Shown here one piece after another: positions 24,801 to 25,825 of a stretch of 64,000 nucleotides of DNA (positions are counted from its first letter, which is position 1; each line of letters opens with the position of its first letter). The stretch is from contig CM097883.1 of assembly GCA_044892505.1 (NCBI GenBank), forward strand, positions 10,788,001 to 10,852,000, written 5' to 3'. This DNA is from Schmidtea nova. Taxonomy: Eukaryota. The notes beneath the pieces are model-generated. The model saw only the letters and a program-made list of their open reading frames with translations. It did no database searches and was not told the DNA's origin. Made by a program: the position numbers and the translations under genes.

Positions 24801-25338
24801 TCTGCGGTATAACCCAGTGTCTCTATCATTCGAAGAGGTTCCCCTAACAAGTACTGCCTAAGATGAAGCATTTTATCTTCGGCTGTTCCATCTGCCTTAT
24901 CTATTACCGTATTGAAGGCCGCTTTCCACGTCTCAAACTCGACCACTTTCCCATCGAAAATCAGAATTTTAATTTTTGCAACCGATTAAAACTCTTCTTT
25001 TCTCTTGGCGCTTCATATTCCAATGTCTTTGATCCCTCGCTCACAACACTTTGTTGTGTTCTTTTTTGCATTATCTTATCTATCTCTTTCTTCTTTAATT
25101 CGAGGTCACCAATATCTTTTCAAACTAATACTAATTCCTCCTTCTTATTTAATTTGTCACACAACTCGACAAGTCTTAGCCATTCGCCCAATGTATCCTC
25201 AAACTCTTTTTCATATATTTTTAGTGAATCCTTGAGCTCCCCATTTATATCTGCGAGCAATAAATTACGCATTCGACTCACTCTCCATTTTTTAGATCGC
25301 CAACGGGTCCATAAACTTTTGAACTCTTCCTCATCATT
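21890..25338 (-). mobile_element. Decayed BEL/Pao LTR retrotransposon (gag, protease, RT, RNase H; integrase end missing)
   Basis: Gag with W..F..F motif and Cys/His knuckles (CFKCQGTHYLDQC, CYNCLRRGHGVREC, CRKEGCKLKHNSLLH). Protease ALLDDASSISY, RT STYMDD, BEL RNase H LHVFVDASSTAYAAV..SIQRLELMG..FWTDS..TFVANRV..NPAD. Many stops and frameshifts. Confidence 0.95.
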
Positions 25339-25605
25339 ACCACCTCTTAAACGAAGAACAAGATGAAGAGTAGATTCCTTTTGAATGTTGTAATCTGACA
25401 GGATTTTTCCGTCTTCCAATTGTTTACTCGCAAATATCAATCTCTGTTGATCAGATGGGATTCCCTCTTTGTCTTGAATCTTTGCTTTTACTTTCTCAAT
25501 AGTGTCCCTCGATTGAACTTCCAGTGTTATGGTTTTACCTGTTAAAGTCTTAACAAAATTTTGTGTTCCACCTCTCAATCGCAAAACAAAATGTAAAGTT
25601 GACTC
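25339..25605 (-). CDS. Captured polyubiquitin (13-aa tail plus one full 76-aa unit) fused in frame to BEL gag
   Basis: [13 protein letters not shown] followed by [30 protein letters not shown] (66/76 identical to canonical ubiquitin by manual count), running directly into gag-like sequence. Confidence 0.95.
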
Positions 25606-25825
25606 AGTTTTATTTTCTTTCACTCGCGAACTATTATCTTTTAAACTTGTCCTTTCATCACCACTTGATATTGAAACAAAACGCAATAATTCCCCTATTT
25701 TATTCATATTCATCCTGTCTTCATGAATACCCAATTTAATATTTTTAGCAACTTTATCATAGATCCTTTATTAATTACCTTTATCTCCCATTATTCCTAC
25801 AAAAGGTTCTAAGCCTTTTCCCACT
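25606..25825 (-). pseudogene. HSP90: Captured HSP90 middle-domain fragment
   Basis: [57 protein letters not shown] matches HSP90 [51 protein letters not shown]. Confidence 0.9.

Follow-up and report, generated by a model that had tools for sequence, protein, structure and literature searches.

A ubiquitin-like domain directly ahead of Gag in a branch of BEL/Pao retrotransposons, with a putative cleavage site for host deubiquitinases

Alignments and phylogenetic trees show that a ubiquitin-like domain is positioned at the front of Gag in five families of BEL/Pao retrotransposons, that these families belong to a single branch, and that the tail of the domain has been kept while its body has diverged. 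We think it likely that, in this branch, the conserved L-[RK]-G-G ending of the domain is cut by host deubiquitinases, which would free Gag from everything encoded upstream. One of the five families was found as a copy in the 64,000-nucleotide stretch of DNA that was analyzed here (the window), where a fragment of HSP90 and additional ubiquitin sequence precede Gag. The conserved ubiquitin–Gag branch is the finding of this study; the HSP90 chimera is an ordinary capture.

Ubiquitin-bearing BEL elements in the window

An earlier, sequence-only reading of the window described an HSP90 fragment, a ubiquitin tail, a full ubiquitin, and a BEL Gag in one frame on the minus strand. This arrangement is indeed present, as judged by Pfam and by alignment across the junction (Table 1), and the 215-residue ORF at 25120–25767 (minus strand) holds the HSP90 fragment, the ubiquitin tail, the full ubiquitin, and 72 Gag codons. 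The order is in frame, but the frame is not continuous, as there are two adjacent stops in the HSP90 piece (25773 and 25770), a stop in the Gag N-terminal domain after these 72 codons (25122), and a frame change near 24975–24990, ahead of DUF1759. The chimera also extends 8 nt beyond the 25120..25825 originally assigned to it, because the HSP90 piece runs to 25833. With its stops read as X, the HSP90 piece gave a gapless best match to residues 414–488 of human cytosolic HSP90-alpha in a phmmer search of the PDB (E 4e-18 to 8e-18). The full ubiquitin differs from the Bilateria UBC unit (P0045) at 10 of 76 residues, including M1. Compared with this full unit, the 13-residue tail is strongly different at synonymous sites (pS 0.65 over 13 codons), and therefore the two are not a recent local duplication. 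The absence of introns, which had also been pointed out, carries little weight, because 75 HSP90 codons fit one exon and polyubiquitin coding units normally have no introns.

Table 1. Features of the two ubiquitin-bearing BEL families in the window and of the adjoining piggyBac fragment
Feature	Position	Strand	Evidence or remark
First family
HSP90 middle-domain fragment, cytosolic type, 75 codons	25609..25833	-	Pfam PF00183, E 1.4e-10 at residues 2–54 of ORF 25120–25767; phmmer to PDB
C-terminal 13 ubiquitin residues ending in LRLRGG, in frame with HSP90 and head-to-tail with the full unit	25567..25605	-	
Full 76-residue ubiquitin, 87% identical to canonical, LRLRGG directly before Gag	25339..25566	-	Pfam PF00240, E 7.5e-27 at residues 71–141 of ORF 25120–25767
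N-terminal Gag domain of BEL element, starting at 25338	24970..25338	-	Homology to P0123
Gag DUF1759 region, in a frame other than that of the N-terminal domain	24509..24985	-	Pfam PF03564, E 8e-8; tblastn of P0155
Three Cys-His knuckles and aspartic protease, motif LLDDAS	23688..24302	-	
Decayed RT (YMDD) and RNase H/Pao-peptidase region	21879..23685	-	Pfam PF05380, E 7.9e-33
5'-truncated piggyBac fragment (C-terminal half of transposase, terminal GGG then TTAA), adjoining the HSP90 piece, outside the chimera	25833..26962	+	Pfam PF13843, E 6.7e-18; X1 contig over 25833 to 26912
Second family
Tandem array of an internally deleted BEL element, 4145-bp unit, five LTR-sharing units	43240–64000	-	Runs past the end of the window
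LTR, 929–930 bp, TGTTTC...GAAACA, with HECT E3-ligase fragment	47385..48314	-	HECT, Pfam E 2e-19
PBS-like motif	47380–47363	-	
Ubiquitin, 76% identical over 71 residues, ending in LRLRGG, about 310 nt past the PBS	46841..47053	-	Pfam E 2.1e-18
RT C-terminus, RNase H, integrase	44156..46712	-	

Beyond the N-terminal Gag domain, DUF1759, the knuckles, protease, RT, and RNase H of this copy are colinear with intact relatives as far as 21879. The ORF at 23661–24302 contains three Cys-His boxes, and a Pao-type RT and RNase H signature is present as STYMDD (ORF 22494–22916) and VDASS (ORF 21903–22493), so that the copy has the BEL/Pao features of a DUF1759 Gag with a triple Cys-His knuckle and a Pao-type RT/RNase H. 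The order Gag-PR-RT-RH-IN is followed through RNase H, with integrase lost. Homology stops short of integrase, and self-comparison and a motif scan revealed no LTR (hence no 3' LTR), PBS, or PPT for this copy; the second family has these features. The captured pieces are followed by BEL sequence on their 3' side; on the 5' side, piggyBac begins at about 25833, and the head of the element (LTR, PBS, and start codon) is therefore missing. With seven stops in five aligned segments (nine counting two in frame overlaps), two more in HSP90, and four frame changes, this is a dead BEL copy amid a nest of transposon fragments.

The second ubiquitin-bearing family forms a tandem array, which is very recent because its LTR copies are 99.6–100% identical. 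Its ubiquitin is present in all five units of the array, its RNase H region and that of the first family share 48% identity, and its PBS-like motif presumably resembles initiator tRNA-Met. No Gag match was recognizable for the 65 residues after its GG, as 143–769 of 1000 shuffles scored as high; by its sequence, this family agrees with the ubiquitin–Gag picture without proving it. A leader common to this family and P0155 (see below) was considered, but the similarity, whose score was reached by 38 of 1000 shuffles, is weak and is not claimed. The occurrence of an E3-ligase piece and ubiquitin together in one element is an odd combination. The frame of the HECT piece (ORF 47044–48099) has no stop across the PBS and leader; it closes where the ubiquitin begins, at a 17-nt tandem duplication.

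Several other features of the window were recorded. Next to the array there is a 750-bp direct repeat (41257–42006 and 42499–43247; 98.7% identical), which overlaps the end of the last LTR of the array by a few bases. An ORF with a TRAF-type MATH domain (Pfam E 5.5e-17), followed by two coiled-coil ORFs, lies at 7000–8531 on the minus strand; the region is apparently intronless and possibly a captured host piece. Orphan coiled-coil ORFs that are alike in their wording and have basic tails recur at 9693–10082, 21011–21478, 36868–37341, and 38897–39432 (plus strand) and at 4966–5286 (minus strand); three of these were scanned and had no convincing Pfam match, and together they may represent one unclassified repeat family. 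A small element between TTAACCC and GGGTTAA (141–464) resembles a piggyBac-type miniature. The window has a GC content near 30%, which together with its BEL, piggyBac, and TRAF-type MATH sequences suggests that the host is an AT-rich invertebrate. It gave no phage match and no tRNA, and no Rfam match in 1–48500.

Relatives that share the ubiquitin–Gag junction

Relatives were sought among 1.84 billion protein representatives using the 121 residues after the GG as query, with no ubiquitin included. This gave three matches, one of which is P0123 (E 6.7e-5), a BEL Gag-protease ORF headed by a diverged ubiquitin that ends in LKLRGG. P0123 and the window copy align without gaps across the ubiquitin–Gag junction (41% over 155 aa), and it is this homology that identifies the segment after the GG as BEL Gag. 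P0121 was dropped as a Gag relative, being a repeat protein. A second query, with residues 63–700 of P0123, yielded 32 proteins, and cluster members were read for 11 of these. In four clusters of the 32 (P0123, P0124, P0138, and P0126), a ubiquitin-like domain directly precedes the same Gag N-terminus. These four outside families, which come from ENA assemblies and were found via Gag/protease similarity or cluster membership, are about 40–50% identical. P0155, from the P0124 cluster, is a single open frame of 2000 aa with the complete order ubiquitin-Gag-PR-RT-RH-IN. P0160, from the P0126 cluster, is an open polyprotein of 1838 aa, likewise complete through integrase; at its front, a ubiquitin tail that is near-canonical is joined by a linker to a second domain that is very diverged. 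The junctions (slash after the GG) read LKLRGG/G in P0123, LSLKGG/Q in P0155 and P0124, VGLKGG/V in P0138, and LRLRGG/S in P0160 and P0158. The sequence-only reading named a junction unique to this copy, with a neutrally decaying ubiquitin, as grounds for refutation; this does not hold, as four other BEL families have the junction, with the L-x-G-G tail kept while the body diverges.

The domain was looked for outside the branch as well. Among 13 non-branch matches with at least 150 residues before DUF1759, none matched a profile of the ubiquitin-like domain at E under 0.1; P0151, with a shorter N-terminus, gave a weak score (E 0.0012). HSP90 is absent from P0123, P0138, P0155, and P0160. Using the whole ORF as query, only polyubiquitin-type proteins appeared among the 120 matches listed, and a weak search of longer proteins, queried with the DUF1759 ORF, yielded 0 of 280 candidates. 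Related loci were not found in viral contigs and JGI metagenomes. In the ESM Atlas, the Gag N-terminus matched nothing, and the matches of P0123 were confined to DUF1759 clusters (0.81). The literature searched gave no account of a BEL or other LTR element headed by ubiquitin; Repbase, GyDB, Dfam, subscription journals, and supplements lay outside that scope and could hold a mention.

All six ubiquitin-bearing rows group together (96/99) in a DUF1759 tree of 25 rows. In a tree of RNase H, the same is seen for five ubiquitin-bearing rows of 18, with both window families included (93/98, where 93 is just below the starred level). The four ubiquitin rows in the knuckle–protease tree form no clean branch (two changes), and the long-branch row P0151 falls inside. 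All trees have midpoint roots only. Rows covering under 70% of the query were excluded, as were, by list and in one set, a further 20 near-copy or fragment rows, and P0159 was scored as ubiquitin-bearing from its cluster and its leading RLRGG. Taken together, these comparisons show the ubiquitin-bearing families as one branch of BEL elements.

Part of the region 24900–25870 is contained in six sequencing runs from three studies, and contigs of X1, X3, X5, and X6 were placed on the window. The contigs from X5 (record 24, 25262–25520, after which it turns back into another ubiquitin) and X6 (record 29, 25276–25488) represent two further studies and bridge the ubiquitin–Gag junction (25339/25338) with more than 31 letters on each side. 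X1 and X3, which are maybe from the window's own species and are not mutually independent, have 15 and 23 contigs over 25606, with up to 41 and 25 letters to the contig end. In both runs, a contig joins 25622 to 25772, which is a ubiquitin-tail/HSP90 chimera with an internal gap; because of this join and the coverage of 25606, the HSP90–ubiquitin junction is probably shared too. The summed depth over Gag-ubiquitin-HSP90 (24415–25862) amounted to 1965–15055 in X1 and 34807–152906 in X3, compared with 77.5 and 708–1173, respectively, over piggyBac. This suggests many copies, depth being no copy number and including host ubiquitin and HSP90 reads, which is clearly so in X5.

Conserved tail and putative release of Gag

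Comparison of eight ubiquitin units showed L73, G75, and G76 in all eight and R or K at position 74 in all eight (p about 1e-6 for retention of the tail, a value that ignores relatedness and is illustrative only). The bodies of the four diverged domains are 15, 28, 47, and 49% identical to ubiquitin, and only seven positions are kept in all four, three of these being tail positions. Residues R42, I44, K48, K63, H68, and R72 vary among the units. The domains were cut at the GG motif for this comparison, and the Pfam boundaries, which were set independently, fall in the same register. In a model of P0158 based on eight sequences, the most diverged domain is predicted to have the ubiquitin fold (pLDDT about 80–87), the GG lies in a flexible, low-confidence linker, and the Gag N-terminus is predicted as three long helices; the overall pTM is low (0.38), which places inter-domain packing outside the model. 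Foldseek matched the P0158 domain to the C-terminal domain of ISG15 (TM 0.91–0.92, rmsd 1.3–1.5) and also to NEDD8, SUMO, and ubiquitin. Hence, all eight units have a ubiquitin fold that ends in L-x-G-G, in frame and with no Pro next, the fold of the most diverged unit being predicted. The residue after the GG is N, G, Q, V, S, or S and never Pro. As these residues are mixed, no single N-terminus is selected, and the idea of an N-end-rule timer is not favored.

Based on these features, host deubiquitinases probably cut after L-[RK]-G-G and so release Gag. The domains that are only 15–50% like ubiquitin are putative substrates, which the host enzymes may cut. Our proposal starts from one old capture of ubiquitin at the head of Gag. 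As with ubiquitin-ribosomal precursors and pestivirus insertions, the cut would be made co-translationally or shortly after translation has finished, and it would give Gag a fixed N-terminus, possibly with better yield or folding. Because near-canonical units are found in each of the two window families and also head P0160, we further propose that the resident ubiquitin could act as a homology landing pad, where reverse transcriptase switches onto co-packaged polyubiquitin mRNA and thereby renews or multiplies the unit. In the family of the window copy, a further in-frame switch onto HSP90 mRNA would have added the HSP90 fragment, which would be cut off after the GG and hence tolerated as a passenger.

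The polyproteins of LTR elements are thought to be cut by their own protease. A wider reading, which we offer tentatively as more doubtful than the cut itself, is that this BEL branch may long have outsourced the first polyprotein cut to host deubiquitinases, with ubiquitin as a self-detaching adaptor that is renewed from polyubiquitin mRNA, and with upstream cargo (HSP90, ubiquitins, and perhaps the HECT piece) cut away harmlessly. If true, the branch would be a standing source of ubiquitin-fusion chimeras and fast-evolving ubiquitin variants.

The GG of ubiquitin is required for conjugation as well as for cleavage, and its retention would thus also be expected if the domain, once released or conjugated through its GG, served as a decoy or variant modifier in the ubiquitin system of the host, for instance to protect Gag or Pol against degradation. 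Even at 15–30% identity, the fold is kept, and the HECT ligase fragment in the LTR of the second family points the same way. However, R72, R42, I44, K48, and K63 vary freely in the diverged domains, meaning that no common binding surface is kept, and near-canonical units replace or precede diverged ones, which makes such a role unlikely. Somewhat less probable still, some of the Gag molecules might retain the domain, which would then function as an inbuilt ubiquitin signal that directs trafficking, recruits ESCRT, or controls degradation. Divergence could slow cleavage, and in retroviral Gags a fused ubiquitin can take the place of late domains (PMC4092849), but an uncut signal gives no reason for L-x-G-G in eight of eight units while the I44 patch decays.

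Cleavage could be the function even if ubiquitin had been captured repeatedly and independently at the same Gag position within one branch. Such captures would account for ubiquitin identities spanning 15% to 87% and for the two window families having ubiquitins that are synonymously saturated (pS 0.81, pN 0.16). Nevertheless, the spacing from the GG to the Gag helices is identical in four of the five families, and all cases fall on one branch, so that we regard independent captures as very unlikely and keep to a single old capture. Least probable is a neutral accident, that is, processed-pseudogene debris or an assembly chimera beside a BEL remnant: the window copy is dead and lies among transposon fragments, and its HSP90 piece has two stops and no counterpart in the four outside proteins, but four other families have this junction, as do contigs from another two studies, which refutes an accident for ubiquitin–Gag, and the open 2000-aa polyprotein and the lack of poly(A) at the junction of the window copy also speak against it.

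Captured host pieces and comparison with known systems

The HSP90 and ubiquitin codons of the first family have a GC3 of 0.24 (40/164) versus 0.38 (348/912) for the element (p 0.0008), and the captured pieces of the second family have 0.25 versus 0.46 (p 0.0007); for the full ubiquitin of the first family alone, the difference is not significant (p 0.08). This low GC3 is host-like and, as a sequence property, fits capture of host mRNA. The spacer-free head-to-tail join of the ubiquitins indicates a polyubiquitin mRNA as source. At the switch point, HSP90 reads ...ENQ, followed by what we take to be Lys, and ubiquitin reads ...NIQK; the shared Gln-Lys pair is a lead only. The joining of partial host coding pieces to element sequence without poly(A) is a feature of LTR retrocopies and is found here. 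In Tan et al. 2016 (PMC5131818), captures from more than one gene are explained by template switching, and the donor elements include Pao and BEL. The sequence-only reading had proposed capture of two stress mRNAs by template switching. The head-to-tail join, the low GC3, and the model of PMC5131818 favor such capture, but not a single joint one, since ubiquitin–Gag is old and branch-wide and HSP90 has been seen only in the family of the window copy. Because it is missing from the four outside families and carries stops, the HSP90 piece is likely passenger cargo, and neutrality is favored for HSP90 alone.

The observation that the D-S/T-G motif of the protease reads DDA was correct, as LLDDAS is seen in the window copy where LLDXG is usual; the accompanying LIG was found in P0123 and P0155. 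The link that had been drawn between ubiquitin and a defective protease was not borne out. DDA occurs in 19 of the 25 matches with a readable motif, among 32 examined, and most of these are elements without ubiquitin; it is also present in the 2000-aa P0155. The idea of a dead protease bypassed by ubiquitin was therefore rejected, because DDA is lineage-wide and ubiquitin does not track it. Moreover, a single N-terminal cut could not stand in for Gag-Pol processing. A broad BEL set (P0125–P0148), in which named sponge and oyster proteins are included, has LLDDAS as its protease motif and lacks the usual Ser/Thr-Gly. In PMC554778, non-DT/SG protease motifs are taken as inactivating changes; the conservation of DDA over a lineage with long open frames speaks against inactivation and makes this a candidate active protease.

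Cellular ubiquitin fusion precursors, namely polyubiquitin, UBA52, and RPS27A, resemble the elements described here in having a ubiquitin that ends in LRGG in frame with a downstream protein. In the elements, however, ubiquitin has the Gag of a retrotransposon as its partner, and its body is not near-invariant. The elements provide ubiquitin variants in a natural series that ranges from 87% to about 20% identity and in which only the fold and the tail are held, and this series would be useful for defining the minimal needs of deubiquitinases.

With BEL/Pao elements (Belpaoviridae), the branch shares a DUF1759 Gag, a triple Cys-His knuckle, a protease, a YMDD RT, a Pao-type RNase H, and an integrase in one frame, and its nearest named relatives are the LLDDAS-type elements of Dysidea avara (P0136) and Saccostrea cucullata (P0141). 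It differs by the N-terminal ubiquitin-like domain ending in L-[RK]-G-G, which is absent from the sister elements examined; PMC554778, where the BEL/Pao features are described, does not contain the word "ubiquitin". LTR-mediated retrocopies, as portrayed in PMC5131818, likewise consist of partial mRNA pieces of more than one host gene in an LTR element, without poly(A) and with further amplification, which explains the HSP90 piece and the HECT piece in the LTR. Those retrocopies are young, and the host piece replaces part of the element, whereas ubiquitin here lies within complete polyprotein frames across families that are only 40–50% identical. If the proposed cut occurs, this would suggest how some retroelements can accumulate host cargo at their 5' ends and survive.

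The insertions in pestiviruses (BVDV Osloss and CP Rit; PMC8310069 and PMC13517609) are similar in that the insert is host ubiquitin in frame, either a single unit or two, which in some cases follows another host fragment. There, the pestivirus polyproteins are cleaved by cellular hydrolases right behind the ubiquitin, even if this is truncated and preceded by a foreign fragment; in the case described in PMC8310069, UCHs cut ubiquitin from NS3 and an upstream S27a fragment rides along. The pestivirus insertions presented there are recent and independent and lie inside the polyprotein of an RNA virus, whereas the domain described here heads Gag, has been inherited over deep divergence, and has drifted far, and its cut is inferred. 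If this inference is right, the branch would be the retroelement counterpart of ubiquitin-ribosomal precursors and pestivirus insertions, stable over deep time.
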